32,000 nt of DNA. Source: Candidatus Saccharimonadota bacterium (lineage in GTDB: Bacteria; Patescibacteriota; Patescibacteriia; 2-12-FULL-60-25). A model generated the notes under the pieces. It saw only the letters and a program-made list of their open reading frames with translations. It did no database searches and had not been told where the DNA came from. Where the stretch lies: contig CP064964.1 of the NCBI GenBank assembly GCA_016699205.1, positions 540,001-572,000 on the forward strand, given 5' to 3'. Below are positions 8,544 to 29,277 of the stretch, piece by piece. Position 1 is the stretch's first letter. Each line of letters starts with the position of its first letter. A program made the translations under genes and the position numbers.

Positions 8544-9428
8544 ATGAAGTCGACATTACGCGCGCTGCTTTCCGTCTTCGCTGTCGGATTGAGTTTTTGG
8601 GTGGGTAGTATGGTCGTTCACGCGGCTCCGGCCGTGGAGCCGAGCTTGTCGACGATCAGCGTTGATAAGGTATCTGCGAAGGCTGACGGCATCGATCAGA
8701 TCCGCGTGAATGTCACGATCAAAAATGCGAATTTCATCGGCGTTGAGAATGCCGATGTTGCGCTCGTATCATCTCGCGGAGCCTTGGATGAAATCTCCCC
8801 TGCTACAGCCAAGACATCGATTACCGGACGCGCCTCGTTTTACGTGAAGTCGTTAAAGAATGGCAGCGCGACCTTGTCTGTCATGCTTAATGGAGCAGCG
8901 TTTCCCAAGAGCGTGAATATTACTTTTGCCGATGGGATCGCTTTAGCCTTGAGTGTTGGCGACTTGATCAAGATTCCGGATGATAATGATGCGAGCACGC
9001 AGCCGGATAGTGCGGTTTACTACTACGCATCCAATGGAAAGCGCTATGTGTTTCCAAATGAAAAGGTTTACTTGAGCTGGTATCCGGATTTTGGAACCGT
9101 GAAGTCGATTCCGATTGATCAAATGTCATTGATTCCGATTGGCGGGAATATCACGTATCGACCTGGCGCCAAGATGGTGAAGTTTCAAACGGATACCAAG
9201 ACTTACTTACCGACAAAAGGCGGAATTTTGCGCTGGGTGCAGACAGAAGAAGTAGCCCGCGGATACTTTGGCACCAACTGGAATCAGCACGTGGATGATA
9301 TTTCTGAAGCGTTCTACGTGAATTACAAATTTGGCGAGCCGATCGGTAGCCCACTCGATCTCTCGCTGCCGATTGTTCAGAGCTCGGTTAACTCGATCAA
9401 TGTCCACCTTGGGCTTGGAGCTCCATAG
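8544..9428 (+). CDS. Secreted protein with a bacterial Ig-like (Big_1/invasin-type) domain
   Basis: The signal peptide is MKSTLRALLSVFAVGLSFWVGSMVVHA. The Ig-like stretch is LSTISVDKVSAKADGIDQIRVNVTIKN...ITGRASFYVKSLKNGSATLSV. Confidence 0.7.
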   Translation: MKSTLRALLSVFAVGLSFWVGSMVVHAAPAVEPSLSTISVDKVSAKADGIDQIRVNVTIKNANFIGVENADVALVSSRGALDEISPATAKTSITGRASFYVKSLKNGSATLSVMLNGAAFPKSVNITFADGIALALSVGDLIKIPDDNDASTQPDSAVYYYASNGKRYVFPNEKVYLSWYPDFGTVKSIPIDQMSLIPIGGNITYRPGAKMVKFQTDTKTYLPTKGGILRWVQTEEVARGYFGTNWNQHVDDISEAFYVNYKFGEPIGSPLDLSLPIVQSSVNSINVHLGLGAP

Positions 9429-9438
9429 TCACGCATCA

Positions 9439-9479
9439 TAATCATAAAACGCTCCCGGTCCGGGAGCGTTTTATGATTA
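9439..9479. terminator. Bidirectional terminator (20-bp perfect stem)
   Basis: TAATCATAAAACGCTCCCGG-T-CCGGGAGCGTTTTATGATTA lies between convergent genes. Confidence 0.8.
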
Positions 9480-9505: not shown

Positions 9506-9865
9506 CTATGCCGTCTTGAGCTTCACCTCTTTGATTTCCTTCATGCGCTTGGAGCTCTTGCGGACGTACTCAATGCTCTTCTTGCGAGCCTTTACCTTTT
9601 TGACGAGTTCGATGCGAGAGATCGATGGGAGCAACATCGGGAAGATCTTTTCTACGCCGACGCCGGAAGCGATCTTGCGGACCGTCATGGTTTTGGCGTG
9701 GGCGCCGCCACCGAGGTTGATGACAAGGCCTTCGTAAACCTGAACACGCTCCTTCTCTTCTCCGGAAGGGCTGACGTCCTTAATTTTCTGGTGCACGCGG
9801 ATGGTCATGCCGGACTCGACTTGCGAGGGCTTGATATCGACGGGCAGGGTTACGAGTTCAGACAT
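9506..9865 (-). CDS. rplS: 50S ribosomal protein L19
   Basis: The product contains ...GMTIRVHQKIKDVSPSGEEKERVQVYEGLVINLGGGAHAKTMTVRKIASGVGVEKIFPMLLPSISRIELVKK..., matching the L19 core (FEG.VI...G.G...TFTVRKI..GVGVE..FP..SP.I..IEV). Confidence 0.9.
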   Translation of the reverse strand: MSELVTLPVDIKPSQVESGMTIRVHQKIKDVSPSGEEKERVQVYEGLVINLGGGAHAKTMTVRKIASGVGVEKIFPMLLPSISRIELVKKVKARKKSIEYVRKSSKRMKEIKEVKLKTA

Positions 9866-9891: not shown

Positions 9892-9920
9892 AGATTAGCC
9901 AAAAGCCGTTAAAACGTCAA
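9892..9920 (-). promoter_or_regulatory. rplS promoter
   Basis: On the minus strand: TTGACG (9920-9915), a 17-nt spacer, then TAATCT (9897-9892). It abuts hairpin 9921-9952. Confidence 0.55.
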
Positions 9921-9952
9921 GGCCCCCGCTCCGAGTGATCGGGGCGGGGGCT
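9921..9952 (-). repeat. Island junction hairpin J5 (after cassette A)
   Basis: The minus strand reads AGCCCCCGC-CCCGATCACTCGGA-GCGGGGGCC. The 30-nt core GCCCCCGCTCCGAGTGATCGGGGCGGGGGC is identical to that of the hairpin at 10719-10750; only the last flanking base differs (C here, T there). Confidence 0.8.
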
Positions 9953-9959
9953 GAGAGAA

Positions 9960-10574
9960 CTACTTCACTTCGCGGAAGGCGACGTAGGCGCAGTCAGCGT
10001 CCCACGCACGGCGGACCTCGCGGTGGAGGCCGAGTTCGCGACGGTTCCCCTTGCGGATGTAGTGGGGTGCGTAGCGATGGAAACCGTCTCTGTCGGCGAG
10101 CCTGTCATCTGACTCAGTGATGAATAGTCTCAAATCTTCAGGGATCGTCGCGTGATCGCCTTCGGGGTTTTGCTGGATCACCCAGGCGATGAAGGCAGCT
10201 GTGTTGCCGATGAAGCCATCCTCGAAGAGACCTCGTACATCGGTAGCTGGTACGAGCTGGCGGCCAGGCTTCCAGATTTGGACCTCGTAGGTCTTGCCGC
10301 GCTCGTCACGAATGAAGCTCCACTTAAGGAGATAGGAACCGAGAGCCCGAGGAGCATCCAGCTGGAGCATCGCCTTCGCCATATTGATTAGAACGGTGGC
10401 GGAGGATACATCGGGAACCGTGATCAGGTCACGTACTTCTTGCTTCCGGCTCTTCTTCGAAGATGCCTTCTTGTACCTGTTGATGAAGCCTTGCGCGTCC
10501 TCGAAGGGCACCTTGCCGGCGACGAGGAGGGCGACGATGGAACCGATCTGTTCTTTGGTGACTTGCTTGTCCAT
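9960..10574 (-). CDS. Island cassette A: hypothetical protein, one copy of the island module (204 aa)
   Basis: The ATG at 10574 is preceded by AAGGAG at a 6-nt spacing (MDKQVTKEQIGSIVALLVAGKVPFEDAQGFINRY...). The C-terminal half reads ...TYEVQIWKPGRQLVPATDVRGLFEDGFIGNTAAFIAWVIQQNPEG...RRELGLHREVRRAWDADCAYVAFREVK*. The track ORF to 10664 reads through the leader. Confidence 0.7.
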   Translation of the reverse strand: MDKQVTKEQIGSIVALLVAGKVPFEDAQGFINRYKKASSKKSRKQEVRDLITVPDVSSATVLINMAKAMLQLDAPRALGSYLLKWSFIRDERGKTYEVQIWKPGRQLVPATDVRGLFEDGFIGNTAAFIAWVIQQNPEGDHATIPEDLRLFITESDDRLADRDGFHRYAPHYIRKGNRRELGLHREVRRAWDADCAYVAFREVK

Positions 10575-10680
10575 GGAACGCTCCTTGGAATCCGTCTGTT
10601 TCCGCTGCTGCGACAAATCGCTTCTGCGGGTTGTTCGGATTTGTGGGAGAGCCGTGATCCGCACGGCGCGGTGAGAATTT
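10556..10680 (-). repeat. 125-bp repeat copy 1: leader + RBS + first 6 codons (MDKQVT)
   Basis: It matches 11822-11946 with 5 mismatches in 125 nt, aligned by eye. Confidence 0.9.
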
Positions 10681-10701
10681 AATACATGAATAATTGGGTT
10701 T

Positions 10702-10750
10702 TGTCAACGGATACAGCAAGCCCCCGCTCCGAGTGATCGGGGCGGGGGCT
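10702..10750 (-). repeat. Junction module J4: hairpin + GCTGTATCCG + TTGACA (-35 of cassette A)
   Basis: The minus strand reads AGCCCCCGCCCCGATCACTCGGAGCGGGGGCT-TGCTGTATCCG-TTGACA. It starts 9 nt after the stop of cassette B. Confidence 0.8.
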
Positions 10751-10758
10751 GGCGAGGG

Positions 10759-11808
10759 TTACTTGCGGATGAGGAGGATGCGGCTGTTGTTGTCGAGCTC
10801 GAGGCCGGCCCAACTACAACACAATACGCGTTCAAGGCTTTCTTCACCCAGTGACGTAACAAACGACTGACCGCTACGATCCCTGTACGAGCCGAGCGTC
10901 GACGAGCCGAGAGCGTAGATCCAGTTCTTACGCTGGAGTTCCGGCTCAGCATTTGCGAACTCGACGGCTTCGACATGGATCGCGAAGCGGTAACCGAGGC
11001 GATCGTAGTGCTCGAAGAGATCGTCCTCGATCGTGTGGATCCGCTTACCGAGGAAGTCGGCTGGGATCTCCGCGACCAAGAACTCGCGCTCGCCCGGGGT
11101 CTCGTCGATCGTGGCGCAGGACTTGTGACGGGTCCACGCGCGACCGTCGAATAGATTGTGGTAGACCTTTGAGAACATCTTCTTGAGCGTGGCGACATCC
11201 GGGAGCGGAGTGTATGTGACGAGGAGGCGGTAGTGGTTGGGTTCGAGGTTGTCGCTGTTTTGCAAGCTGGGTTTGCGCACGGCGAGGAAACGGCAGCTCG
11301 CAGTCCACGGGTCTGGACCGCCGAAACAGCCCATGAGGAGGTTGCGACCACCATCCAAGTACGGCAAGTAGAGGTAGTCGGCGTCGTCCCGGCAGACCGA
11401 ACCGAAAGCAGCGATCGGGTAGTTGCGCCGCTCATCGGGGTACTGCTTGGCTAAGGCCAGCAGCTCCTCGTAGAGAGCGGGGCGCAGTCCCTGACGGTCG
11501 AGCTCGGCGAGGATCGCGTCTGTGTCCAACCTCTTGTCCAGATGCACGAGCTCGAACTCAATCTCGCGGGTCTCCGTCGATACTTCCTTGCAGACGTCGA
11601 TCGGCTTGAACTCCGCGTTCTCGTAGCCTTCGTACACATAGTTGAAATCCTTCTTGAGGTCGGCGTATGAGGGCTGATTGTAGATGACCTCGGCGCGGAA
11701 GCCTGGGGCATAGCTCGGCTCGCGGGACTTCTCCATGATCTCCACCCCTCCTTCGATGATCGCCTGCGCATGGTTGTGAACGATCGCACCTTTGGCGAGC
11801 ATGTTCAC
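10759..11808 (-). CDS. Island cassette B: hypothetical protein with two island modules (349 aa from GTG 11808; the true N-terminus is probably the frameshifted MDKQVT start at 11840)
   Basis: Module 1 reads ...EIEFELVHLDKRLDTDAILAELDRQGLRPALYEELLALAKQYPDERRNYPIAAFGSV...CRFLAVRK. Module 2 reads ...WTRHKSCATIDETPGEREFLVAEIP...LGYRFAIHVEAVEFANAEPELQRKNWIYALGSS...SRILLIRK*. Confidence 0.75.
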   Translation of the reverse strand: MNMLAKGAIVHNHAQAIIEGGVEIMEKSREPSYAPGFRAEVIYNQPSYADLKKDFNYVYEGYENAEFKPIDVCKEVSTETREIEFELVHLDKRLDTDAILAELDRQGLRPALYEELLALAKQYPDERRNYPIAAFGSVCRDDADYLYLPYLDGGRNLLMGCFGGPDPWTASCRFLAVRKPSLQNSDNLEPNHYRLLVTYTPLPDVATLKKMFSKVYHNLFDGRAWTRHKSCATIDETPGEREFLVAEIPADFLGKRIHTIEDDLFEHYDRLGYRFAIHVEAVEFANAEPELQRKNWIYALGSSTLGSYRDRSGQSFVTSLGEESLERVLCCSWAGLELDNNSRILLIRK

Positions 11809-11840
11809 GATCTCTGCTGTCTGGTGACTTGCTTGTCCAT
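11805..11840 (-). other. 11-codon ORF MDKQVTRQQRS* overlapping the GTG of cassette B (remnant of its original 5' end)
   Basis: It has the same AAGGAG-N6-ATG GAC AAG CAA GTC ACC start as cassette A. Its TGA overlaps the GTG of cassette B (GTGA). Confidence 0.6.
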
Positions 11841-11946
11841 GGAACGCTCCTTGGAATCCGTCTGTTTCCGCTGCTGCGACGAATCGCTTCTGCGGGTTAT
11901 TCGGATTTGTTGGAGAGCCGTGATCCGCACGGCGCGGTGAAGATTT
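11822..11946 (-). repeat. 125-bp repeat copy 2: leader + RBS + MDKQVT
   Basis: See 10556-10680. Confidence 0.9.
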
Positions 11947-11967
11947 CTTATATCAAAATATGCATTT

Positions 11968-12016
11968 TGTCAACGGATACAGCGAGCCCCCGCACCGAAG
12001 GAATCGGGGCGGGGCT
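11968..12016 (-). repeat. Junction module J3: hairpin + GCTGTATCCG + TTGACA (-35 of cassette B)
   Basis: The minus strand reads AGCCCCGCCCCGATTCCTTCGGTGCGGGGGCT-CGCTGTATCCG-TTGACA-AAATGCATATTTTGATATAAG. Confidence 0.8.
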
Positions 12017-12023
12017 GTAGGGG

Positions 12024-13103
12024 CTAGTTGCGGACGAGGAGGAGGCGATCCATCTCGTCCAGTTTGCTCTCGTACATCTCACTGCTGATTGCAACGGAAT
12101 ACATGCGGGCAGGAGGTGTCGGGTCCGGGAAGAAGCTGAGTTCCATCACGTGGATTCCTCCGACGCCGTGCGAGTACGTGGAGGGGTCGACTTCCACCGA
12201 GGAACCGAGGGTGAGAATTCTTCTGTAGTGATGGAGAAGCGTCGAGCGCTTTTTGATGAATTCGAATGCCTCTGTCTCGATCGCAAAGCGATAGCCCTCA
12301 CGATCGAAGTGGGCAGCGAGCTCATTCCAAGCTTGTTGGATGCTCTGTCCGTGAAACACCTCGGGAAGCTTTGCCAAGCGGAGCACGCGCTCACCGGGAG
12401 TCGTGTCGACAGCTGAGCAAGAGCTGTGACGCTCCCACCTGCATCCATCAAACGCAGGCGAAACGACGGGATTATCCTCGTCGAAAGAGTCTTCGGAAAG
12501 TCTCAGCAACGCCGATTCTAGTTCGCCGATTCCCGGGAGCGGTTCATAGCCGAGCTGCATCCGGTAATGCATCGACGGCGCCGCTCCGATTCTGAGCGCG
12601 AGATCGGCATCCGTCATACGGACGAGCAGCACGCTTTCGACGCCCACTTCCTCACTCCACTCATCGACCAAGTAGCGACCATCTCCATTCTCGCCAATGC
12701 TCGCTACGTAACAATAGGTGCCATGAATGAATGACGAGCCGAGTGCGGTGACGTGCTCTACCCACGCCGTACTTGGGCAAGTCACTGCAAACTCAATTAG
12801 CTCTCCAACGACAGCAAAGCGGAAACCGAGCTTCTCGTAATACGACGAAAGCCAGCTCCACTCCATGCGCTCATCGTCCGCTTGCTCCGAGAACTCCTTG
12901 GGGACATCCGCGATCCAGAAATCGCGCTCACCCGGCGTTTCATCGACTCGCTCGCAGGAGTTGTGCCGCTCCCACAGCCGAAAGTCGTCCTCGGAAAACC
13001 ATTCCGAGATCGCCTCTTCGGGAAGCAGCTTCTTGAGCTCTGCCAACGCTGGGAGCGGATTGTAGCTCACGAAGATCCGAAAGCGCTTTTCTTCTGTTGT
13101 CAC
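12024..13103 (-). CDS. Island cassette C: hypothetical protein with two tandem island modules (359 aa)
   Basis: The GTG start at 13103 follows GAGGTG. Module 1 reads FRIFVSYNPLPALAELKKLL...WERHNSCERVDETPGERDFWIADVP...LGFRFAVVGELIEFAV...VTALGSS...SVLLVRM. Module 2 reads YRMQLGYEPLPGIGELESALL...WERHSSCSAVDTTPGERVLRLAKLP...EGYRFAIETEAFEFIKK...ILTLGSS...DRLLLVRN*. Confidence 0.8.
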   Translation of the reverse strand: MTTEEKRFRIFVSYNPLPALAELKKLLPEEAISEWFSEDDFRLWERHNSCERVDETPGERDFWIADVPKEFSEQADDERMEWSWLSSYYEKLGFRFAVVGELIEFAVTCPSTAWVEHVTALGSSFIHGTYCYVASIGENGDGRYLVDEWSEEVGVESVLLVRMTDADLALRIGAAPSMHYRMQLGYEPLPGIGELESALLRLSEDSFDEDNPVVSPAFDGCRWERHSSCSAVDTTPGERVLRLAKLPEVFHGQSIQQAWNELAAHFDREGYRFAIETEAFEFIKKRSTLLHHYRRILTLGSSVEVDPSTYSHGVGGIHVMELSFFPDPTPPARMYSVAISSEMYESKLDEMDRLLLVRN

Positions 13104-13142
13104 AGAACACCTCGTGCTTTATTTATATCAAAATAGGCATTT

Positions 13143-13191
13143 TGTCAACGGATACAGCAAGCCCCCGCTCCAAGTAATCAGGGCGGGGGCT
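13143..13191 (-). repeat. Junction module J2: hairpin + GCTGTATCCG + TTGACA (-35 of cassette C)
   Basis: The minus strand reads AGCCCCCGCCCTGATTACTTGGAGCGGGGGCT-TGCTGTATCCG-TTGACA-AAATGCCTATTTTGATATAAA. Confidence 0.8.
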
Positions 13192-13198
13192 GGAGAGG

Positions 13199-13927
13199 TC
13201 AGACTGGCTCATGGATAAGTAGAAGGGCGTAATTCCACTTTCGCATACTAATTGCACGCAGAGAACGATCTCTGAAGGGTTCGTGCGCATACGTAACGCG
13301 CAAAGCGCGATCGTACCCCTTGTTCCGCATCGTCAGGTACATGAAACTACGTTGGCCGTTGCCGTCACAAACAGAAGTTCCAAGAGGAAAAATTCTGTGG
13401 GCGCGCTGGAGATGAGGCTGGGCTTGCGAGAACTTGATCGCTTCTACCAAGTTCGCAAACCGGTATCCCTTACATTCGAAGCACTTTCTCAGCCCCTCTT
13501 CTCTTTCCTGATAGATATCCGCCTCTCTCAGGAGCGGCGTGTTATCGATCACATCCCTCGTTACGATGAACTCACTTGGAACTTGCACGACCAAGAAGTC
13601 ACGTTCACCAGGTGTCTCATCGATCGTCTCATGATCGATCCAGTCAAGCCGCTTGAGCACCCTTGAGACGCTGTGCTTTCCAGAAAACATCTGCTCTAGA
13701 GCTTCGAAATCCGTTGGCTTGCTGTAGTCGACATGAATTCGATAGTGCTTGCCCTCGAGAAGCGGCGGGCTCTCTCGTGTGGGTAGCTCGCCTCCCTCGA
13801 TCAGAGCTTGCAAGCCCTTAAGCGCGACATCGATAGGAACCGATCCTTCGCGCACTCGGCGGAAGAGGTCGTGGTATCGGCGGGCTAATTGACCGAGCTG
13901 TTCGTCGGAGACATCGCGAGACGTCAT
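13199..13927 (-). CDS. Island cassette D: hypothetical protein, one island module plus a helical N-terminal region (242 aa)
   Basis: AAGGAGG lies 7 nt before the ATG at 13927. The product reads ...HYRIHVDYSKPTDFEALEQMF...IDHETIDETPGERDFLVVQVP...KGYRFANLVEAIKFSQAQPHLQRAHRIFPLGTS...YALLLIHEPV*. The N-terminus (EQLGQLARRY...VPIDVALKGLQALIEGG) resembles the N-termini of A and B. Confidence 0.8.
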   Translation of the reverse strand: MTSRDVSDEQLGQLARRYHDLFRRVREGSVPIDVALKGLQALIEGGELPTRESPPLLEGKHYRIHVDYSKPTDFEALEQMFSGKHSVSRVLKRLDWIDHETIDETPGERDFLVVQVPSEFIVTRDVIDNTPLLREADIYQEREEGLRKCFECKGYRFANLVEAIKFSQAQPHLQRAHRIFPLGTSVCDGNGQRSFMYLTMRNKGYDRALRVTYAHEPFRDRSLRAISMRKWNYALLLIHEPV

Positions 13928-14015
13928 GACAAACCTCCTTGTGATGGAACAAGTCCTTCTGTGACACAGAATGCGTCTTGATGGACGGCGTTTATTTATA
14001 TCAAAATAGGCGTCT

Positions 14016-14064
14016 TGTCAACGGATACAGCAAGCCCCCGCGCCGAAGGAATCGGGCGGGGGCG
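14016..14064 (-). repeat. Junction module J1: hairpin + GCTGTATCCG + TTGACA (-35 of cassette D)
   Basis: The minus strand reads CGCCCCCGCCCGATTCCTTCGGCGCGGGGGCT-TGCTGTATCCG-TTGACA-AGACGCCTATTTTGATATAAA. Confidence 0.8.
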
Positions 14065-14069
14065 GTTGA

Positions 14070-14573
14070 TCAGATCTTCACGAAAAGATATCGGTGATTG
14101 GGACGGCATGCCGAGTCGGCCCCAGTATAGACCAATCCACGGAATGGGGTCTTGAGCCCTTCGTGCTGCTTCACTGTGAAGTAGAGATGAATTGTCTTGT
14201 CCGCGGTGTCTCGATGGTTCCGGAAGGTACCTAGATCGACGATGCGATCATAGTCCTCCGTGATAGGGATATCGGGTCGCGCGAGAAAGAAGGCATTTCG
14301 CTCCGATGGGAATGCTACTCGGCAACCGTTGGACATTGCCCACTCGAGGACTTCTGCATCGGTACTCCGCATGGGTTCATCCTTCGCGAACTCCTTGAGA
14401 ACGAAGTCGATCTCCCCTTTCTTCGGACGAAAATCCTTAAGTGACTCATGAAGCTCCCAGCCTTCTGTCAACGACATGCCTTCCGACACATAGATCTTCA
14501 GTGACTCGAGCATCACCTCCCCCAACAAGGACATATCGACACGGAAATACTGTTCTGACTGGTTCTTGCTCAC
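14070..14573 (-). CDS. Island cassette E: hypothetical protein, a divergent island module (167 aa)
   Basis: GGAGG lies 4 nt before the GTG at 14573. The product reads ...GEIDFVLKEFAKDEPMRSTDAEVLEWAMSNGCRVAFPSERNAFFLARPDI...RIVDLGT...HRYLFVKI*. Confidence 0.7.
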   Translation of the reverse strand: MSKNQSEQYFRVDMSLLGEVMLESLKIYVSEGMSLTEGWELHESLKDFRPKKGEIDFVLKEFAKDEPMRSTDAEVLEWAMSNGCRVAFPSERNAFFLARPDIPITEDYDRIVDLGTFRNHRDTADKTIHLYFTVKQHEGLKTPFRGLVYTGADSACRPNHRYLFVKI

Positions 14574-14580
14574 GTTACCT

Positions 14581-14612
14581 CCAAAACAAAACTGGCATAT
14601 AAAGCCAGTTTT
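14581..14612 (-). terminator. Probable original uvrA terminator, now downstream of the uvrA 3' remnant
   Basis: The minus strand reads AAAACTGGC-TTTATAT-GCCAGTTTT-GTTTTGG, starting 9 nt after the remnant stop codon. Confidence 0.6.
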
Positions 14613-14621
14613 GTCAATCCC

Positions 14622-14663
14622 TTACATCAGCTCCTTCAGATACTTTCCGGTCCACCTCTTCTT
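14622..14663 (-). pseudogene. Displaced duplicate of the uvrA 3' end (KKRWTGKYLKELM*)
   Basis: The minus strand AAG AAG AGG TGG ACC GGA AAG TAT CTG AAG GAG CTG ATG TAA compares with the uvrA 3' end at 15273-15232, AAG AAA TCT TGG ACT GGG AAG TAC TTG AAG GAG CTG ATA TAA. 33 of 42 nt are identical. Of the 7 differing codons, 5 are synonymous; the other two encode S>R and the terminal I>M. Confidence 0.75.
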
Positions 14664-14668
14664 TATAC

Positions 14669-15232
14669 TCAGGGCACAAAGTTTTTTGATACATACAGAA
14701 GTTCCATGCCTGGCTCTATTAGATCATCAATATCGATTCTGTTTAACGTCCACCCGTTTGCACCCTCACCTTCATTTTCATCTTCATATAATTCAGCTAT
14801 GCAACGCGCTCCACCCTTCCAGACCGTCGATGAGCCCATAACGAGAATATCTCGATCTATGATCATGCGATCAGAATATACTCTCGCGAAACTCACCGCC
14901 TCATCAATTACTGCAAAACGATAACCTAGCTTATCCAAAAAACTCGCCAGTTCGTCCCACACTTCTTTGATTTTTTTATTGTGAAACTTCTCCGGGATAT
15001 TTCCAATAAAGAATTCGCGTAATTTGGTAAACTCATCAACCCCCTCACAGGAGGGATGATTCACCCACGTAAGTAAAACGCGTAGGTTAAGCGGGTCATC
15101 TATCCAATCTCCTGTCTTACGAACTTCTTCAGGAGTACGATGATCGTAATTCACTTCGACTAAATAACTCCGAAGCACTTTTTGTTCAGACGACTGGTCT
15201 TGGTTAAGTGGCATACGGTAAATTACAGACAT
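14669..15232 (-). CDS. Island cassette F: hypothetical protein, AT-rich member of the island family (187 aa)
   Basis: The ATG at 15232 overlaps the uvrA stop (TAATG). The uvrA codons AAG GAG provide an SD 8 nt upstream. The product is MSVIYRMPLNQDQSSEQKVLRSYLVEVNYDHRTPEEV...HPSCEGVDEFTKLREFFIGNIP...LGYRFAVIDEAVSFARV...ILVMGSS...MELLYVSKNFVP*. The track ORF start at 15265 lies inside uvrA. Confidence 0.75.
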   Translation of the reverse strand: MSVIYRMPLNQDQSSEQKVLRSYLVEVNYDHRTPEEVRKTGDWIDDPLNLRVLLTWVNHPSCEGVDEFTKLREFFIGNIPEKFHNKKIKEVWDELASFLDKLGYRFAVIDEAVSFARVYSDRMIIDRDILVMGSSTVWKGGARCIAELYEDENEGEGANGWTLNRIDIDDLIEPGMELLYVSKNFVP

Positions 15233-18141
15233 TATATCAGCTCCTTCAAGTACTTCCCAGTCCAAGATTTCTTATTCTTAGCAATCACTTCCGGTGTTCC
15301 TTCTGCGACGAGAGTACCGCCGCGCAATCCTCCCTCTGGTCCCATGTCGATGACCCAGTCGGCGAGACTGACGACGTCGAGATTGTGCTCGATGACGAGG
15401 ACGGTGTTTCCTTTATCGACCAAAGCGTTCAGAACGACCATGAGGCGCTTAATATCGTCAAAATGGAGACCTGTGGTCGGTTCATCCAGAATATAGAGCG
15501 TACGGCCTGTAGCGCGTCTGGAGAGCTCGGTAGCGAGTTTAACGCGCTGAGCTTCACCGCCAGAGAGCGTGGTGGCCGGCTGACCTAATCGAACATAGCC
15601 GAGACCAACCTCATGCAGGACGGAACGCTTCTCGTAGATCGCGGGTTGGTCAACGAAGAAACGTCGACCTTCTTCAACGGTCATGTCGAGAACGTCGGCG
15701 ATGGTTTTGCCGCGGTAGTGAATCTCGAGCGCTTCCGAGTTGTAGCGCTTGCCGTGACACTCGTGACACTCGACGTAGACGTCGGGCAAAAATTGCATGG
15801 CGATCTGGATGTAGCCGTCTCCGCCACACGGTTCACAGCGTCCGCCGCCTTTGACGTTGAACGAGAATTTGCCGGCATCAAAGCCGCGCATCTTGGCTTC
15901 CGGGATTTCCGTGTAGAGATCGCGGATCGCGGTGAAGACACCGGTGTAGGTGGCTGGGTTGGAGCGAGGCGTGCGGCCGATTGGCGATTGGTCGACTGAG
16001 ACAACTTTATCCAAATGCTCCATGCCCTCGATCTTTTTATGTTCTGCGACCGGATCTTTGGCGCCAAAGAAGTGGCTCGAGAGAGCACGGCCGAGAATAT
16101 CGAGGACGAGCGTTGATTTACCGGAACCCGAAACACCCGTGACACAGACGAGCTGAGCCAATGGGAATTTCACATCGACATTCTTGAGGTTGAAGGCTGT
16201 GGCACCGCGCACGGTGATGGCTTTGCCACTCCCCTTGCGACGCGTCTTGGGCTTGTCGAGCTTCATCTTGCCGGAGAGATATTGTCCGGTGACGGATTCC
16301 TTGTCCTTTTTAATTTCCGCGAGCGTACCTTCGGAAATAATGTGGCCGCCGTATTCACCAGCACCTGGGCCGACGTCGACAATCCAGTCGGCGGCTTTCA
16401 TGACGGCGTCGTCATGCTCAACAACGATGACGGTGTTGCCGAGATCGCGAAGACGCTTGATGGTGTGGATCAGCTTATCGTTGTCGCGCGGATGCAAGCC
16501 GATGGAAGGCTCATCGAGAATATAGATGACGCCGGACAATTCCGAGCCGAGCTGGGCTGCCAGACGCACGCGCTGGGCTTCTCCGCCGGAAAGCGACATA
16601 GCTGAACGGTCAAGCGTCAGATAATCCAAACCGACGTCCATCAAATTTTGAAGGCGGCGGCGGATTTCTCCGGAGACTTGGTCGACAACGAGACGCTCAC
16701 GCTCGGTGAATCCGTTGGCGTCCGGCTTTTTATCGCCCTTGAGTTTGGCGATTTTGGAACCTTTGAACGCGGCGGAATCTTTTGCCTTGCCCGTACCCTT
16801 TCCTAAGCCTTGGAAGAAGGCGAGAACTTCATCGAGCGGCAAAAAGACGAGGTCGGCGAGCGATTTGCTGGCAACCGTGACAGCGAGCGACTCTTTGCGC
16901 AGACGGCGACCCTGACAATCGGGACAGGTGAGGACGCGCATGTAGGCCTCGATTTCTTTTTGGACGTATTCCGAATCGGTTTCTTTGTGCTTGGCCTCGA
17001 GCATCGCCAAAATACCTTCGAACTCGCCATCGCCCTCAAATAAAGCCTTCAATGCTTTTGGCGAGAACTCTCCGACAGGTTGATTGATGGTGAAACCGTG
17101 CTTGGCACCGACTTCTTCCAGCTTTTTTACATGGGCCGTTTGATTTCCAGCGATGCGCGTCCACGGCTTGATCGCTCCTTGGGCGATGGTGAGCTTTTTG
17201 TTTGGAATCACGAGCTCCGGTTCAAGCACGAGCTTGGTTCCGAGACCGGTACAGGCGGGACAAGCGCCATGCGGCGAGTTGAAGGAGAAAAGACGCGGCT
17301 CGAGCGTTGGTAAGGAAATATTACAGTTGGCGCAGAACAAGGATTGCGAGAAGAGTTTTTCATCGCCCGTGTCCTCGTTGATGGTCATGACCAAGCCGTT
17401 TCCAAAATCGAGCGTCTGTTTTACAAACTCGAGCATGGAATCGATGACGACGCCCGAACCTTTGGTGAGGCGCTGAACCACAACCTCAATGGTGTGCTCG
17501 GCTGTTTTGTCGATGCGGGAGTGAAGGATCTCGTCCAAGTCGACAATGGTGCCGTCAAAACGAACTTCACGGAAACCAGCGTTCTTCACGCTCTGCATCG
17601 CGACTTTGTGCTCGCCTTTTTGGGCGCGGACAATCGGCGCCATCAATAGAATGGTTGATTTGTTGGCGAGTTCCAAAACTTTGTCCGCGATTTCACGCGT
17701 CGTCTGCTCGATCACGGCTGAACCGCATTGCACGCAGTGGGCGCGGCCGGCGCGGGCGTAGAGGAGGCGTAGGAAATCGTAAACTTCCGTCACGGTACCG
17801 ACGGTGGAGCGCGGATTGTGGGAAGTGGTCTTTTGATCGATAGCGATGGTCGGTGAAAGACCCGTGATCTCATCGACATCAGGCTTGTCCTGCAGCTCCA
17901 TGAATTGTCGTGCGTATGACGACATCGATTCCATGTAGCGGCGCTGGCCCTCAGCGTGGATGGTATCGAAGGCGAGAGAAGATTTTCCCGATCCAGAGAG
18001 ACCTGTCACAACAATAAAGTTGTTTTTTGGCAGGTCGATCGAAACATTCTTCAAGTTATGGACGCGGGCTCCTTTAATGGAGATCGTGTCATGCAACTTC
18101 TTGGATGGCATGTTGGCGGCGAGGCTACCACCGATAGACAT
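15232..18141 (-). CDS. uvrA: Excinuclease ABC subunit A
   Basis: The Walker A motifs are GLSGSGKSSLAFDT and GVSGSGKSTLV, and LSGGEAQR occurs twice. Zinc-finger pairs are CVQCG, CANC...CPAC, CPDCQG and CEPCGGDG...CHECHG. The start is uncertain: TTG 18150, ATG 18141 or ATG 18111. Confidence 0.95.
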   Translation of the reverse strand: MSIGGSLAANMPSKKLHDTISIKGARVHNLKNVSIDLPKNNFIVVTGLSGSGKSSLAFDTIHAEGQRRYMESMSSYARQFMELQDKPDVDEITGLSPTIAIDQKTTSHNPRSTVGTVTEVYDFLRLLYARAGRAHCVQCGSAVIEQTTREIADKVLELANKSTILLMAPIVRAQKGEHKVAMQSVKNAGFREVRFDGTIVDLDEILHSRIDKTAEHTIEVVVQRLTKGSGVVIDSMLEFVKQTLDFGNGLVMTINEDTGDEKLFSQSLFCANCNISLPTLEPRLFSFNSPHGACPACTGLGTKLVLEPELVIPNKKLTIAQGAIKPWTRIAGNQTAHVKKLEEVGAKHGFTINQPVGEFSPKALKALFEGDGEFEGILAMLEAKHKETDSEYVQKEIEAYMRVLTCPDCQGRRLRKESLAVTVASKSLADLVFLPLDEVLAFFQGLGKGTGKAKDSAAFKGSKIAKLKGDKKPDANGFTERERLVVDQVSGEIRRRLQNLMDVGLDYLTLDRSAMSLSGGEAQRVRLAAQLGSELSGVIYILDEPSIGLHPRDNDKLIHTIKRLRDLGNTVIVVEHDDAVMKAADWIVDVGPGAGEYGGHIISEGTLAEIKKDKESVTGQYLSGKMKLDKPKTRRKGSGKAITVRGATAFNLKNVDVKFPLAQLVCVTGVSGSGKSTLVLDILGRALSSHFFGAKDPVAEHKKIEGMEHLDKVVSVDQSPIGRTPRSNPATYTGVFTAIRDLYTEIPEAKMRGFDAGKFSFNVKGGGRCEPCGGDGYIQIAMQFLPDVYVECHECHGKRYNSEALEIHYRGKTIADVLDMTVEEGRRFFVDQPAIYEKRSVLHEVGLGYVRLGQPATTLSGGEAQRVKLATELSRRATGRTLYILDEPTTGLHFDDIKRLMVVLNALVDKGNTVLVIEHNLDVVSLADWVIDMGPEGGLRGGTLVAEGTPEVIAKNKKSWTGKYLKELI

Positions 18142-18149
18142 ATATGACA

Positions 18150-18171
18150 AGAGCCACCCCCTGGCGGCTCT
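18150..18171 (-). terminator. Hairpin between the Cys-rich protein gene and uvrA
   Basis: The minus strand reads AGAGCCGCC-AGGG-GGTGGCTCT. Pairing is complete only on this strand (one G-U pair). It is followed by a U-rich stretch. Confidence 0.45.
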
Positions 18172-18196: not shown

Positions 18197-20455
18197 TTAC
18201 GGGGTACAGGTGCCGATACCGGCCGTCATATCCATTGGACGATCAAAGCTTGCAAAGACGCCGCCGCTCGCCCCTGGTTCAAAGCGGCACGTGCCTGATT
18301 GGCATTGGCCGTTGAAGTCACACTTAGAACCGTTCACGCGAACTGGGTAACAAGCCGCTTTTTCTACACGAACCGGATTTACCGCATCGAGACCATCGAT
18401 GGGTGTACCGAGATATGAACCCGTGAAGTTGATGGCGAATTCTGTTGCTGACCAAGTTGATGCGCTGCAGCCAGTCGTACACGCGCCTTCAAGCTGATCG
18501 CGCGGCGGAGAGGCTCCTGTTGGAGGACGAGGAATGCCGCTCTCGGCACGGATGGCGCAGAATCCCGTACAGACACCGCCGACACACATCGAGGAACATT
18601 CGCTATCGGAAGAGCAGGATGCGCCGATTGGTTTGCGGCAGCCAAAGCGTGCGTAGCTCCATGGACGGAGATTTTCTGGGGCGTTTTCAAAGTTCCATGA
18701 GTAGGCGACGCCGGTATTCCCAAAGAGTGTCGCATATTCCTCTTCCGAGCATCGATTTGGATTTGCGGCCGAGGTTGAACATCGATAGCGATGGCTCATG
18801 CAGAAGCTGTCGACACCGCTGCCGGAAACACGATTACATCCGCCTTCCCAATTGCTGATGATATTGGTTTCTTGGTAGTAACGCTCACCCCCTCCTGGAC
18901 CATAGAACAAGCTTGAACATACGGGGCGCGGGTCAAGCTCGTAGTCGCGATAGTCGCCGGTAACGCAGCGCCCGACTTGTTCTTCATTACCCTGCTGACA
19001 GGTGAAGCCGGCAGCACATGGAATCTGCGGATCTGCGGCCATGTTGCACACGCTGCCTGTTTCTCCGGTCAAACAGCGCCAGAGACCCTCGATCTGCTGA
19101 CAGGTCCCCTCCTGACACGCGACCTGCATCGTTCCATTGTTATTTGTCGGACTTCCGTCTTCCGATGTGCGCACATCGCAACCGCCGGAGCATCGGCAGA
19201 GCTCATTGGCACGACCTTGCGTACATTGTCCGCTGGAAAGACCTTCCGTATTTGACGTGCGTAGACAGACGCGGCCTTCACGGCATTGAGAATCTCTTAC
19301 ACATGCAGGAATCGCCCCGCCCTCATCGGCATTTGGGTCCCGAGCGGTCGAGGAGGCGCTGATCCCGACGCATTCAATACTCTCCGGATTAAGGCGGAAT
19401 TGCGTTGTGCTTGGATTGATTGTTTGGAGAATCGAGTACGCCGCGAGGACCACGACCATGCCGATCAGAGCATCGCGAATAATCTGTTTGCCGCGCTGAA
19501 TAGATCCGATGCCCGCTGCACCCGTCAGGTAGAGGAATCCTCCATAAACAACCATGACGATCGCGACCACGAGAATGATCGAGACAAGGTAGCGGTAGAC
19601 CGTATTAATATATTCCGGCAAACCGGTGACTTGTTGAATGCCGCCGATATTAACCCCAAGCGTGATCGGAACTGGTGCATCGTCCGATGGATCGCAGGCT
19701 GCCGAATAACCTGCACTGCTGTCGGCTACCGCGGCACTTGGAGAATCAACGTCAGCGACGGCGTCTGGGAAGACTTGGTCTGCTTCAGAACCTGTTGGAC
19801 AACTAGAAGGCGTGCCGCCACCAGCGATTCCAGGAGCGAGGGCGCAGGCCCAGGCGCGGTATCCTTCTCCGGTGAGGTGGGAGTTGCGGCTACGGATCTG
19901 AGATTCGCCGTTGCCCGGGTTTGTTTCTTGCTGGAATGGGCCAGCCGCGCTTCCGGGACGGCCGTCGATCCAGCGGGCGCCGAGACTCGGTACATACGAT
20001 GATTGAACCGTTGCGGTGCGGTCATGTCTTTCCTGTACGCCTTCATCGCGGCTTGTAGCGGGACCGATCCAGACGACGTCGGCGCCGCGGGCGTGGGCAT
20101 CGTTATAGGCTTGGCGGAGTTTGGTTTCGTAGGCTGTACGGCTTGCTCCGGAGGTTTGGACATCGTCATTGCCGCCGATAATCAGGATGACGAGCTGCGG
20201 GTTACGAGAATTCACCATGCTTGAGATGGTGTTGTTATCTAGGAACCAGCGCAGACCCTTACCTGCATGCGAGGACTGACCCGTGACCTCGACATCGTAC
20301 CCTGCGAGCGCTGTTGTAAGCGGGCGATGCAGACCCTGAGCCTGGCTATCGCCGATGATGACGGCTGTGCGCGCGTCTGCCGCAACCGGGAAAGCGATCG
20401 CGATCGCAAATACAAAAGAAGCGGTCAGCGAAAGGAGCGGGCGGAAAAAACGCAT
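18197..20455 (-). CDS. Large surface protein: signal peptide + SGNH/GDSL-like hydrolase + pilin-like two-TM hairpin + Cys-rich C-terminal domain (752 aa)
   Basis: The signal peptide is MRFFRPLLSLTASFVFAIAIAFPVAADA. SGNH blocks are VIIGDSQAQG, LVILIIGGNDD and VVWIGP. The TM hairpin YLVSIILVVAIVMVVYGGFLYLTGAAGIGSIQRGKQIIRDALIGMVVVLAAYSILQTINP looks like the TrbC/VirB2-type pilin module common in CPR surface proteins. I counted about 33 Cys in the last ~375 aa, with C..D.QC..G.C-type repeats. Confidence 0.7.
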   Translation of the reverse strand: MRFFRPLLSLTASFVFAIAIAFPVAADARTAVIIGDSQAQGLHRPLTTALAGYDVEVTGQSSHAGKGLRWFLDNNTISSMVNSRNPQLVILIIGGNDDVQTSGASRTAYETKLRQAYNDAHARGADVVWIGPATSRDEGVQERHDRTATVQSSYVPSLGARWIDGRPGSAAGPFQQETNPGNGESQIRSRNSHLTGEGYRAWACALAPGIAGGGTPSSCPTGSEADQVFPDAVADVDSPSAAVADSSAGYSAACDPSDDAPVPITLGVNIGGIQQVTGLPEYINTVYRYLVSIILVVAIVMVVYGGFLYLTGAAGIGSIQRGKQIIRDALIGMVVVLAAYSILQTINPSTTQFRLNPESIECVGISASSTARDPNADEGGAIPACVRDSQCREGRVCLRTSNTEGLSSGQCTQGRANELCRCSGGCDVRTSEDGSPTNNNGTMQVACQEGTCQQIEGLWRCLTGETGSVCNMAADPQIPCAAGFTCQQGNEEQVGRCVTGDYRDYELDPRPVCSSLFYGPGGGERYYQETNIISNWEGGCNRVSGSGVDSFCMSHRYRCSTSAANPNRCSEEEYATLFGNTGVAYSWNFENAPENLRPWSYARFGCRKPIGASCSSDSECSSMCVGGVCTGFCAIRAESGIPRPPTGASPPRDQLEGACTTGCSASTWSATEFAINFTGSYLGTPIDGLDAVNPVRVEKAACYPVRVNGSKCDFNGQCQSGTCRFEPGASGGVFASFDRPMDMTAGIGTCTP

Positions 20456-28107: not shown

Positions 28108-28533
28108 CTAGCTTAAGGCTTTTTCAATACGTTTATCCGTATGTGCAATAATTTTGGAGTATTGATCAGCCAATTTGTCGTCTAGATAGTCTTTGGTGAC
28201 CATGCGCGATTCCACGCGGTTAATACGAAACTCCATCTTATCTGACTGATCGGCCAACTCGCGAATAGCCTCCATAGTTTCCATATGTACCCCATCAATC
28301 TTCCCATCCAGGCTCGCAACCTTCCCATCCAAGTTCGCTATCTTCCCATCCAGGCTCGCAACCTTCCCATCCAAGTTCGCTATCTTCCCATCCAGGCTCG
28401 CAACCTTCCCATCCAACCCTTCAATTTTCCCGTCGATCTTCGAAAAACCCGTATCCATCTTTTCATTAAGACGGTTTAACTCTTTAAGGATCTCTCGGTT
28501 GGAAACATCGTTCGGCGAGGTTTTCATTTTCAT
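28108..28533 (-). CDS. Coiled-coil protein with LDGK(V/I)A(S/N) heptad tandem repeats (141 aa)
   Basis: GGAG lies 8 nt before the ATG at 28533. The product is MKMKTSPNDVSNREILKELNRLNEKMDTGFSKIDGKIEGLDGKVASLDGKIANLDGKVASLDGKIANLDGKVASLDGKIDG... Confidence 0.7.
   Translation of the reverse strand: MKMKTSPNDVSNREILKELNRLNEKMDTGFSKIDGKIEGLDGKVASLDGKIANLDGKVASLDGKIANLDGKVASLDGKIDGVHMETMEAIRELADQSDKMEFRINRVESRMVTKDYLDDKLADQYSKIIAHTDKRIEKALS
28300..28404. repeat. Perfect tandem repeat, 42-bp unit x 2.5 (alternating 21-mers), inside 28108..28533
   Basis: CTTCCCATCCAGGCTCGCAAC and CTTCCCATCCAAGTTCGCTAT alternate as A-B-A-B-A with no mismatch. Degenerate copies flank the block on both sides. Confidence 0.95.
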
Positions 28534-28590
28534 ATGATACACTCCGTTCCACTTTTTGCCTGCCCAGTCAAGTGGATAACCAAAAGAAGA

Positions 28591-28623: not shown

Positions 28624-29277
28624 TTAGTCTTGCGGCACAATGCCAAGGAGGAAGACCTCGCGGTCGGTGACGAGGTCGAGGCTGAGGACGTGCTCGGGGG
28701 CGCCGCTTGGGTACCAGGTGCGGTAGCTGGGGAAGCACCAGCTAAAACCCTCCATGTCCGTGCTCACGGTGCCGGGAGCCAGGATGATGAAATGCTCGCT
28801 GATGTCGCGATAGGCGGTCACGAAACCGAGCAGTTGCTCGAGCGTCCCGGAGCCGAGTCCTTCCGCGTGAAGACGGGCAACGATCTCTGGACCATTGAAC
28901 GTATTCAGAGATGCTGGCAAAAGTCTGCCACGGACATTCTTCTTGATGTGCGCCGTGCGCTCCGTATTGGGCGCGAGCCTCATTACACGTTCCGGATACC
29001 AACCCTCGGTGACCGTAGCCTTACGGTAAAGGCGGCTACCGAGATGCTCGGGGACATCAAAGACGAATTCCTTGCCGACCGGACGCTCAGGCTTGGAGCG
29101 ATTTGATTTGTGCAAAGATTTCATCGCGTTGATGGCCGCCACGCTCAGGCTCTTGTTGCTAAGCATGGCGTCGACGAGATCCTTGTCCAGCCCGCTATCG
29201 ACCAACAAGTCCAACCAATCGATGATCCAGTCGAGTGTCAGGCGCTTGCGTAGGGCAATCCGATCCGTCGTTCCCAT
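28624..29277 (-). CDS. Hypothetical protein, distant ninth copy of the island module, GC-rich (217 aa from ATG 29277)
   Basis: The C-terminal half ...GPEIVARLHAEGLGSGTLEQLLGFVTAYRDISEHFIILAPGT...LSLDLVTDREVFLLGIVPQD* follows the same order of elements as cassette B module 1 and cassette E. One hand-counted line (28681-28740) gave 42/60 G+C. The track TTG start at 29334 is itself a TTGACA hexamer. Confidence 0.6.
   Translation of the reverse strand: MGTTDRIALRKRLTLDWIIDWLDLLVDSGLDKDLVDAMLSNKSLSVAAINAMKSLHKSNRSKPERPVGKEFVFDVPEHLGSRLYRKATVTEGWYPERVMRLAPNTERTAHIKKNVRGRLLPASLNTFNGPEIVARLHAEGLGSGTLEQLLGFVTAYRDISEHFIILAPGTVSTDMEGFSWCFPSYRTWYPSGAPEHVLSLDLVTDREVFLLGIVPQD

Follow-up and report, generated by a model that had tools for sequence, protein, structure and literature searches.

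The targets of diversity-generating retroelements (DGRs) in the candidate phyla radiation (CPR) were reportedly first surveyed by Paul et al. 2017. Among the DGRs, a Patescibacteria-restricted clade (clade 2) was distinguished, and the CPR targets, which have neither transmembrane segments nor known domains, are expected to be new variants of the fold seen in C-type lectins (CLec; Roux et al., 2021, PMC8144416). Here, we describe a locus where proteins homologous to such targets, and likewise without signal peptide, transmembrane segment or known domain, are encoded by six tandem genes between uvrA and rplS. It lies in a 32-kb stretch of DNA (contig CP064964.1, positions 540,001-572,000; hereafter, the window) from a genome of ~1.08 Mb that is taken as that of a Candidatus Uhrbacteria bacterium (CPR/Patescibacteria). 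Unlike the CPR DGRs, the window contains no reverse transcriptase or template repeat in its 32 kb, its six tandem genes have homogenised junctions, and it varies by whole cassettes and not by adenine mutagenesis. The array is probably a retroelement-free, cassette-shuffled repertoire of stand-alone DGR-type ligand-binding proteins.

DGR-target paralogues without a retroelement are already known from cyanobacteria (PMC7517822). The cyanobacterial CLec paralogues, including 'remote' variable proteins, are likewise multiplied or dispersed, some of them without a nearby reverse transcriptase or homology to a template repeat, and loss of the diversification machinery once a variant has been selected was proposed (Vallota-Eastman et al., 2020, PMC7517822). 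However, these paralogues lie apart from each other in the genome, and many are fusions with kinase or caspase domains, whereas those of the window are small, stand-alone proteins in a cassette hot spot with repeated terminator/promoter units and strain-level turnover. The solved CLec variable proteins Mtd, TvpA, archaeal AvpA and Thermus TaqVP (PMC2408619, PMC5006420, PMC6328139) are also compact α/β domains with the variable region in the C-terminal strands, but sequence similarity to the array proteins is not detectable, none of them is among the top 50 Foldseek matches, and the array proteins have an extra N-terminal β-α unit with a W.RH.SC..DETPGER motif. A third system, the arrays of recombinase-associated acquired interbacterial defence genes (rAID-1) and of integron cassettes, shares with the window co-oriented divergent small genes, repeated intergenic sequences, a skewed GC content and differences between strains (Ross et al., 2019, bioRxiv 10.1101/471110). 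In contrast to those arrays, the window has no tyrosine recombinase, attC-type sites or immunity homology, and most of its cassettes have a promoter-like site of their own. We found no description of a tandem, strain-variable array of CPR DGR-type cassettes with homogenised terminator/promoter junctions in a slot between core genes.

An earlier note on this DNA had reported six co-oriented open reading frames (ORFs) that share a protein module, and all six are present where it placed them. They are located on the minus strand between uvrA (15232-18150, minus), the conserved left-hand border of the slot, and rplS (9506-9865, minus), its right-hand border, which encodes ribosomal protein L19 (Pfam Ribosomal_L19, E=2.6e-24) and is 98.6-99% identical in all related strains. 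Cassette A (9960-10574) encodes an A-type protein of 204 residues, in which a helical hairpin at the N terminus is combined with a lectin-like domain of divergent sequence. Cassettes B (10759-11808) and C (12024-13103) encode two modules each, i.e., B2 (10762-11259) and B1 (11260-11721), with domain E values of 4e-39 and 4e-67 to a hidden Markov model (HMM), and C2 (12027-12593) and C1 (12594-13103), with values of 1.4e-59 and 5e-58. Cassette D (13199-13927) combines an N-terminal helical extension with a single module (E=2e-56), E (14070-14573) is a divergent single module (E=3.5e-5 with a model that holds no E-type sequence), and F (14669-15232) is again a single module (E=1e-49), the start codon of which agrees with that of the homologue P0014. 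Protein C corresponds to IPH19_02810, and exactly this protein is found on one contig only. The GC content is mosaic, as had been noticed before: 42% in F, 52% in E, 53% in D, 57% in C, 58% in A and 59% in B.

The relationship between these proteins is graded. BLASTP joins B, C, D, and F at E values of 1e-5 to 1e-24 and shows the two copies that had been seen by eye in B and in C. An HMM of the module, built from the copies in these four proteins and run on the six-frame translation of the window, recovered its own copies plus E, the alignment of which spans the whole module, and a family HMM matched all five proteins at 1e-19 to 1e-100. G (28624-29277, minus), which is located outside the array, is a remote member of the family (hhalign P=1.9e-5, probability 78%; phmmer 3.6e-8 to the representative P0083). 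A was not matched by the module HMMs and has a homologue family of its own. Its profile-profile match to the module family is weak but collinear (hhalign P=3e-4, probability 17-37%), its N-terminal 48 residues, forming the helical extension, are 73% identical to the module protein P0015, and A-type genes adjoin module genes in three other loci (L003, L018 and L021). We therefore list A, which has the same secondary-structure order, as a sister family of the module. Thus, of the nine module copies counted in the earlier note, seven are solid and one, G, is moderate and remote, whilst the ninth, A, represents the sister family. The motifs that the note had listed for the shared module are accurate.

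The module of ~160 residues could not be assigned to a named family, as in the earlier note: Pfam, NCBIfam, PHROGs and PDB sequence profiles yielded none for the six proteins or for 148 family members. A profile search of 1.84 billion representatives gave 1,536 clusters with E<=1e-3, of which 381 reach E<=1e-10, and the named matches are all hypothetical proteins of Uhrbacteria, Magasanikbacteria, Komeilibacteria or Minisyncoccia. On viral contigs, no relatives of the DETPGER subfamily were found with that subfamily as the query; the back-translation search used a narrow alignment that reaches one subfamily only. The proposal that the module was repeatedly duplicated in the array does not hold. 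Single-module proteins of other genomes share 52-63% identity with B1 as well as with B2, whereas B1 and B2 are ~25% identical to each other, and, therefore, the array modules are old paralogues rather than recent in-situ duplicates, an origin that was rejected on the same grounds. The array proteins as a whole are 25-40% identical to one another.

On sequence grounds, the module and the A type are identified as variable proteins of CPR DGRs, because their homologues bear adenine-biased pairs of variable repeat (VR) and template repeat (TR) with adjacent reverse transcriptases, and because of the entropy pattern in the family. The VR comprises ~135 nt (~45 residues) at the 3' end of the target gene, and in several related loci a full gene is followed by a downstream fragment that copies its 3' end. 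In L001, the VR/TR pair of 135 nt shows 20 mismatches, 19 of which are at template adenines. The same count is 26 of 29 mismatches over 131 nt in L004, 19 of 21 over 143 nt in L015, 18 of 24 over 143 nt in L017 and, for an A-type gene, 14 of 17 over 136 nt in L018. Just downstream of the TR in L001, L004, L015, and L018, a reverse transcriptase of ~320 residues is encoded (tblastn E 1e-120 to 1e-150), and the three enzymes of L018, L001, and L004 match Pfam RVT_1 at E values of 1e-21 to 1e-24. The L018 enzyme bears a YADD motif and the motif LGNLTSQ, which we take to be a hallmark of DGRs.

Both types of window protein are homologous over their full length to verified targets. B2 is 63% identical to the target of L001, 49% to the L003-type and 41% to that of L004, where L001 and L004 are Uhrbacteria, and an HMM of A homologues matches the verified target in L018 (9580-10317) at E=8e-66. 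Column entropy over 291 family domains amounts to 3.44 bits at adenine-containing template codons vs. 1.49 bits elsewhere in the VR region (Mann-Whitney p=2.6e-6), with 2.48 bits in the remaining module. In the VR-equivalent region of the window copies, the scaffold GSS..L..L..W..RxLLVRK is retained, and the differences are at adenine-coded positions. Right after the stop codon of true VR genes, a run of CTTAG/CTTGG with a periodicity of ~9 nt (e.g., GCACTTAGACCCTTGGGCCTTTAGCTCTTG) was observed, i.e., at L001 10472-10560, L004 10457-10520, L015 2517-2600 and L018 10321-10400. It was seen neither after the TRs nor in the window cassettes and may help this DGR clade to recognise its targets.

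AlphaFold models of B2 (pLDDT 90.9) and A (pLDDT 73) have their elements in the same order, β-α-β-α-β-α-β-β-β-β. In Foldseek searches of the PDB, the top 9 matches for B2 and the top 15 for A were all C-type-lectin domains (CTLDs), with E values of 0.1-1 and TM scores of 0.3-0.47. In our own reading, the motifs G-Y-R-x-A..E..F, ALGS and RxLLVRK, together with the order of secondary-structure elements, parallel the motifs of CTLDs. Most copies start with a short N-terminal helical hairpin, which is followed by a β-α unit and then by the domain that ends in the VR-equivalent region of ~45 residues. The models, which resemble CTLDs weakly, suggest that this domain is a new variant of the CLec fold, with the C-terminal strands as the predicted binding surface. 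A signal peptide or transmembrane segment was not found in any of the proteins A to G. The earlier idea of a surface-variation locus is broadly right as far as variation is concerned, since the module represents the family of CPR DGR variable proteins, but it is not supported with respect to the surface location. The cassette products may be soluble binders of a fast-changing ligand, probably in interactions with a host, phages or neighbouring cells.

Despite this kinship with DGR targets, no retroelement was found in the window. A tblastn search with the L018 enzyme, a query that matches L001, L004, and L015, revealed no reverse transcriptase in the 32 kb at E<=0.01. Equally, no TR was found there by self-comparison, a method that recovers five clear VR/TR pairs in other loci, or when the final 160 nt of each module were used as queries at high sensitivity. 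Because of the lack of both components at the locus, each cassette would represent one fixed binding specificity. It is conceivable, though unlikely, that a DGR in another part of the genome targets the cassettes remotely, with its reverse transcriptase and TR RNA acting in trans and the GC-rich hairpin 4-9 nt after the stop codons guiding retrohoming. Such a scenario would fit with the presence of homologues that are true DGR targets in other Uhrbacteria, with the remote variable proteins documented in cyanobacteria (PMC7517822), and with the four nonsynonymous and zero synonymous differences by which B of the window is distinguished from its counterpart in L006. However, neither a TR nor a reverse transcriptase is present in the 32 kb, and the 3' ends of the cassettes, when compared with the four available TRs, are 50-63% identical without adenine bias, so that a derivation from these templates was rejected. 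Active DGRs re-randomise ~15 positions at once. Yet the VR-equivalent region of B, D, and E differs by 0-2 residues between strains at a uvrA dS of 0.1.

The hairpins themselves belong to the junctions between the cassettes. A junction unit of ~80 nt is located upstream of A, B, C, and D, and its four copies are 79-100% identical. Read along the gene strand, it consists of the GC hairpin GCCCCCGCCCCGA-TCAC-TCGGAGCGGGGGC (-21 to -31 kcal/mol), downstream of which lie TTGACA and, after a spacer of 15 nt, an extended -10 element (TGATATAAA). All copies are on the minus strand. The segment 10575-10757 comprises the leader of A and unit J1, with a TTGACA / TGnTATTAA promoter-like site and a hairpin at 10720-10751. 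Unit J2 (11943-12023), one of two direct repeats around C, has its hairpin at 11986-12017 next to a promoter-like site, J3 (13118-13198) contains a hairpin at 13161-13192, then TTGACA, 15 nt and TGATATAAA, and J4 (13991-14066) combines a hairpin at 14034-14065 with a promoter-like site. A further hairpin after A (9922-9953, minus; -26.3 kcal/mol, z=-4.8) and the copy at 10720-10751 have 100% identical sequences, and this hairpin is single-copy in strains without A. In total, the stop codons of A to E are each followed, after 4-9 nt, by a stable GC hairpin with a 13-bp stem and a TCAC, TTAC or TTCCT loop, which may function as a terminator.

The statement that A to D have promoters of their own agrees with the presence, upstream of each, of a site that is promoter-like in sequence (TTGACA, 15 nt, extended -10). 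A scan for the sigma-70 consensus gave 0 promoters in the window, because the spacing between -35 and -10 is 15 nt. Of the other two cassettes, E has a -35-like TTGACA only, and F has no promoter of its own; the ATG of F overlaps the stop codon of uvrA (TAATG). The structured junctions described for all six cassettes are found as hairpins after A to E, whereas F is joined to uvrA without a promoter. Rfam searches of junctions and leaders returned noise only. A repeat of 205 nt (10547-10751 vs. 11813-12017, 87% identical) places the leader of A, with its Shine-Dalgarno sequence and first six codons, upstream of B. At this position, it forms an 11-codon remnant of the 5' end of an A-type gene (MDKQVTRQQRS*; 11805-11840, minus), the TGA of which overlaps the GTG start codon of B, 2 nt before an ATG at 11802. 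Consequently placed, B may be translated via coupling or reinitiation from this remnant ORF.

The hairpins could also be viewed in the light of DGR homing. The homing hairpin or cruciform of DGRs is GC-rich, has a 4-nt GRNA loop and is located shortly after the VR, and homing in phage BPP-1 requires such a GC-rich hairpin 4-34 bp after the VR (Guo et al., 2011, PMC3240598). The very stable hairpins within 4-9 nt of five cassettes resemble this arrangement and would favor a role as remote targets. In contrast, their loops (TCAC, TTAC or TTCCT) do not conform to GRNA, and their stem measures 13 bp rather than 7-10 bp. Moreover, a hairpin of this kind does not directly follow the stop codon of the true targets in L001, L004, L015, and L018, and the same hairpin is found 3' of a cassette, X, that does not belong to the family (see below). 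Targeting in trans is disfavoured because of the little VR variation between strains, the absence of the hairpin from true targets and its presence after X.

The array differs between closely related strains. Contigs on which the flanking uvrA and rplS genes are 95-99% identical carry at least six different arrays. From uvrA to rplS, the window has F-E-D-C-B-A, L005-L009 have E-D-B, L010 has a 374-aa two-module gene and then a 195-aa gene, and L024, L025, L026, and L029 have the 374-aa gene followed by A. L027 shows F-X-D-B-A, and L028 shows X-D-B-A on a contig that begins inside the F region, so that the uvrA end is not seen. C is absent from every other array state. X (L027 1440-1805, 121 aa) replaces E in L027 and L028; it has its own TTGACA site and the same GC hairpin at its 3' side and, in L027, lies after another version of the uvrA-end remnant described below.

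These comparisons also bear on another interpretation, i.e., that the array is an ordinary, locally duplicated family in a fixed operon with a housekeeping function. In favor of such an operon, the array is flanked by the core genes uvrA and rplS and shares their strand. Nevertheless, it is hardly credible, as it is already contradicted by the different array contents among near-identical strains; furthermore, the paralogues are closer to genes of other genomes than to each other, A to D have separate promoter-like sites, hairpins follow A to E, and the dN/dS of the cassettes exceeds that of the flanking genes. When the window is compared with L006, E, D, and B together show 8 synonymous and 8 nonsynonymous differences, vs. 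81 and 6 in the flanking genes (Fisher p=1e-4). The view of the earlier note, that the array occupies a variable cassette slot and not a fixed operon, is therefore supported by the six arrays; a match to a housekeeping family was not obtained, and the six-gene order is not conserved across relatives.

Direct repeats, which are single-copy in strains without the respective cassette, flank each of the extra cassettes, i.e., F, C, and A. For F, the repeat is the 3' end of uvrA (15232-15273 / 14622-14663); for C, it is the junction unit; and for A, it consists of the two 100% identical hairpins. F is absent from L005-L010. The displaced, ancestral uvrA 3' end downstream of it (14622-14663, minus), which encodes KKRWTGKYLKELM*, is 79% identical to the current one at 15232-15273 and, over its last 33 nt, matches the true uvrA end of L006 and L010 with 100% identity. 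Conversely, the last ~100 nt of uvrA in the window are 85% identical to those of relatives, vs. 96-97.5% for uvrA overall. Since the displaced copy matches the relatives, the current end has diverged and the GC content of F is foreign, F was inserted together with a foreign uvrA terminus. Its entry could have occurred either by single-crossover integration of a circle or by a double crossover with a donor that already held a uvrA-end remnant. L010 and L024 combine unrelated module bodies with promoter, leader and N-terminal segments that share 77-91% identity with those of D and A. Compared with L006, D and B are 99.6-99.7% identical (D 99.7% at the nucleotide level), while uvrA differs by 2.5%. 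Because their dS is 0-0.006 vs. 0.10 for uvrA, the sequences suggest that D and B have spread recently across strains, by a sweep or by transfer.

Elsewhere, family genes are found alone or in groups of two to four, flanked by housekeeping genes and without a constant partner; the neighbours in ~15 loci are either further family members or the housekeeping genes tsf/gap, atpC, ftsH/rpsA, uvrD/rpsL and lexA/imuB. A second array of this kind in the same species, L021 8901-10693 (JGI Ga0558720_00014), encodes a 169-aa module protein, a 144-aa A-type protein and a 230-aa module protein (P0204). It adjoins lexA and an operon for an imuB/dinB-type polymerase, and a reverse transcriptase is absent from the 10 kb around it. 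The gene directly downstream of G (28108-28542, minus) encodes a coiled-coil protein of 144 residues with tandem LDGKVASLDGKIAN repeats. A homologue of this gene, 42% identical, adjoins a module gene in L002, and another coiled-coil repeat protein (L018 7109-7705) flanks the DGR array of L018. The coiled-coil protein may be a recurrent partner of the family, perhaps as a stalk for the binding domain. L002 (CAYGDS010000093.1), a contig of 4.6 kb labelled 'uncultured Gammaproteobacteria', carries a module gene together with a CPR-type coiled-coil gene and is probably a mis-binned CPR contig.

The earlier note had also considered a role in immunity or anti-defence. In favor of such an island of orphan genes, the array shares several traits with the rAID-1 arrays (bioRxiv 10.1101/471110): its small genes are divergent, co-oriented and arranged in tandem, the sequences between them are repeated, the GC content is skewed, and strains differ; moreover, several of the array proteins are acidic and all are soluble. 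We consider this role improbable, however. In agreement with the earlier statement that no recombinase or toxin is visible, none was found among the neighbouring called genes or the window ORFs, and a recombinase was also absent from every syntenic relative, as judged from called genes with Pfam families. No toxin gene lies beside family members in ~15 contexts, and the only immunity-family match in Pfam is Imm25 at E=0.1 for C, which is not above noise, with none for the 148 members (the PADLOC library was not searched). In addition, the family is positively identified as DGR targets, and A to D, unlike integron cassettes, have their own promoter-like sites. An immunity array was rejected for want of a recombinase, toxin or immunity homology. 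An integron was likewise rejected, given the lack of a recombinase among the called genes of relatives, the promoter-like sites of A to D and a hairpin that, by inspection, has no R''/R' core motifs. Of the components that define either system, the repeated junctions are the only one present. The only recombinase seen near a family member is a phage-type integrase (Phage_int_SAM_1 / Phage_integrase) on a metagenomic contig, at L011 3099-4133, ~3 kb upstream of a two-module gene.

Two other features lie next to the slot. A protein of 752 residues (18197-20455, minus) that adjoins uvrA combines DUF459/GDSL-lipase-like and T4SS_pilin Pfam matches, an unusual pairing, and is kept in all related strains. 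At 9439-9479, between a convergent Big_1/invasin-like gene (8544-9428) and rplS, there is a perfect 20-nt inverted repeat (TAATCATAAAACGCTCCCGG / CCGGGAGCGTTTTATGATTA), which is probably a bidirectional terminator.

In a repertoire of fixed DGR-type binders without a retroelement, which we favor, the composition would shift by gain, loss and replacement of whole cassettes. This would proceed by recombination at homogenised boundaries, for which there are three candidates: the ~80-nt unit of hairpin and promoter-like site, the leader plus the segment that codes for the N terminus, and the 3' end of uvrA. Expression of F would be coupled to that of uvrA, and A to D would each be expressed from their own promoter-like site. 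Several observations weigh against this explanation. The fold statistics are weak (Foldseek E ~0.1, TM 0.4-0.47), and the membership of A is based on weak sequence evidence together with structure and context. X comes from outside the family, and, hence, the slot is not family-specific. No recombinase was found, and both plain homologous recombination and a site-specific enzyme are possible. Finally, 32 kb of the ~1.08-Mb genome was viewed, and a DGR elsewhere could still act on the cassettes.

A more far-reaching proposal, for which the chances seem rather slim, is that the slot is a recombinase-free, integron-like exchange site, which would store binding modules evolved by DGRs and allow strains to trade them. 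Portable recombination arms would then be provided by the homogenised 5' handle (promoter and leader plus the N-terminal helical segment), by the GC hairpin at the 3' side and by the uvrA 3' end, and the two-module proteins B and C would have arisen by fusion of neighbouring cassettes. If so, adenine mutagenesis in some genomes and shuffling of its products as cassettes in others would couple two layers of diversification in the ultra-small genomes of CPR bacteria.

CPR bacteria are among the organisms richest in DGRs, and their targets are unnamed proteins without known domains. The locus described here provides a usable definition of such a family, with a module of ~160 residues, a sister A type, a confident structure model and ~1,500 clusters. 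The family is not confined to DGRs but also forms multi-gene arrays, the content of which varies among strains even where the flanks are 95-99% identical. As the locus is small and has core genes on both sides, metagenomes show directly where cassettes were gained, lost or replaced, and its proteins are candidates for work on ligands and structures. Thus, the binding repertoires in these tiny genomes may be tuned by point hypermutation as well as by cassette exchange.

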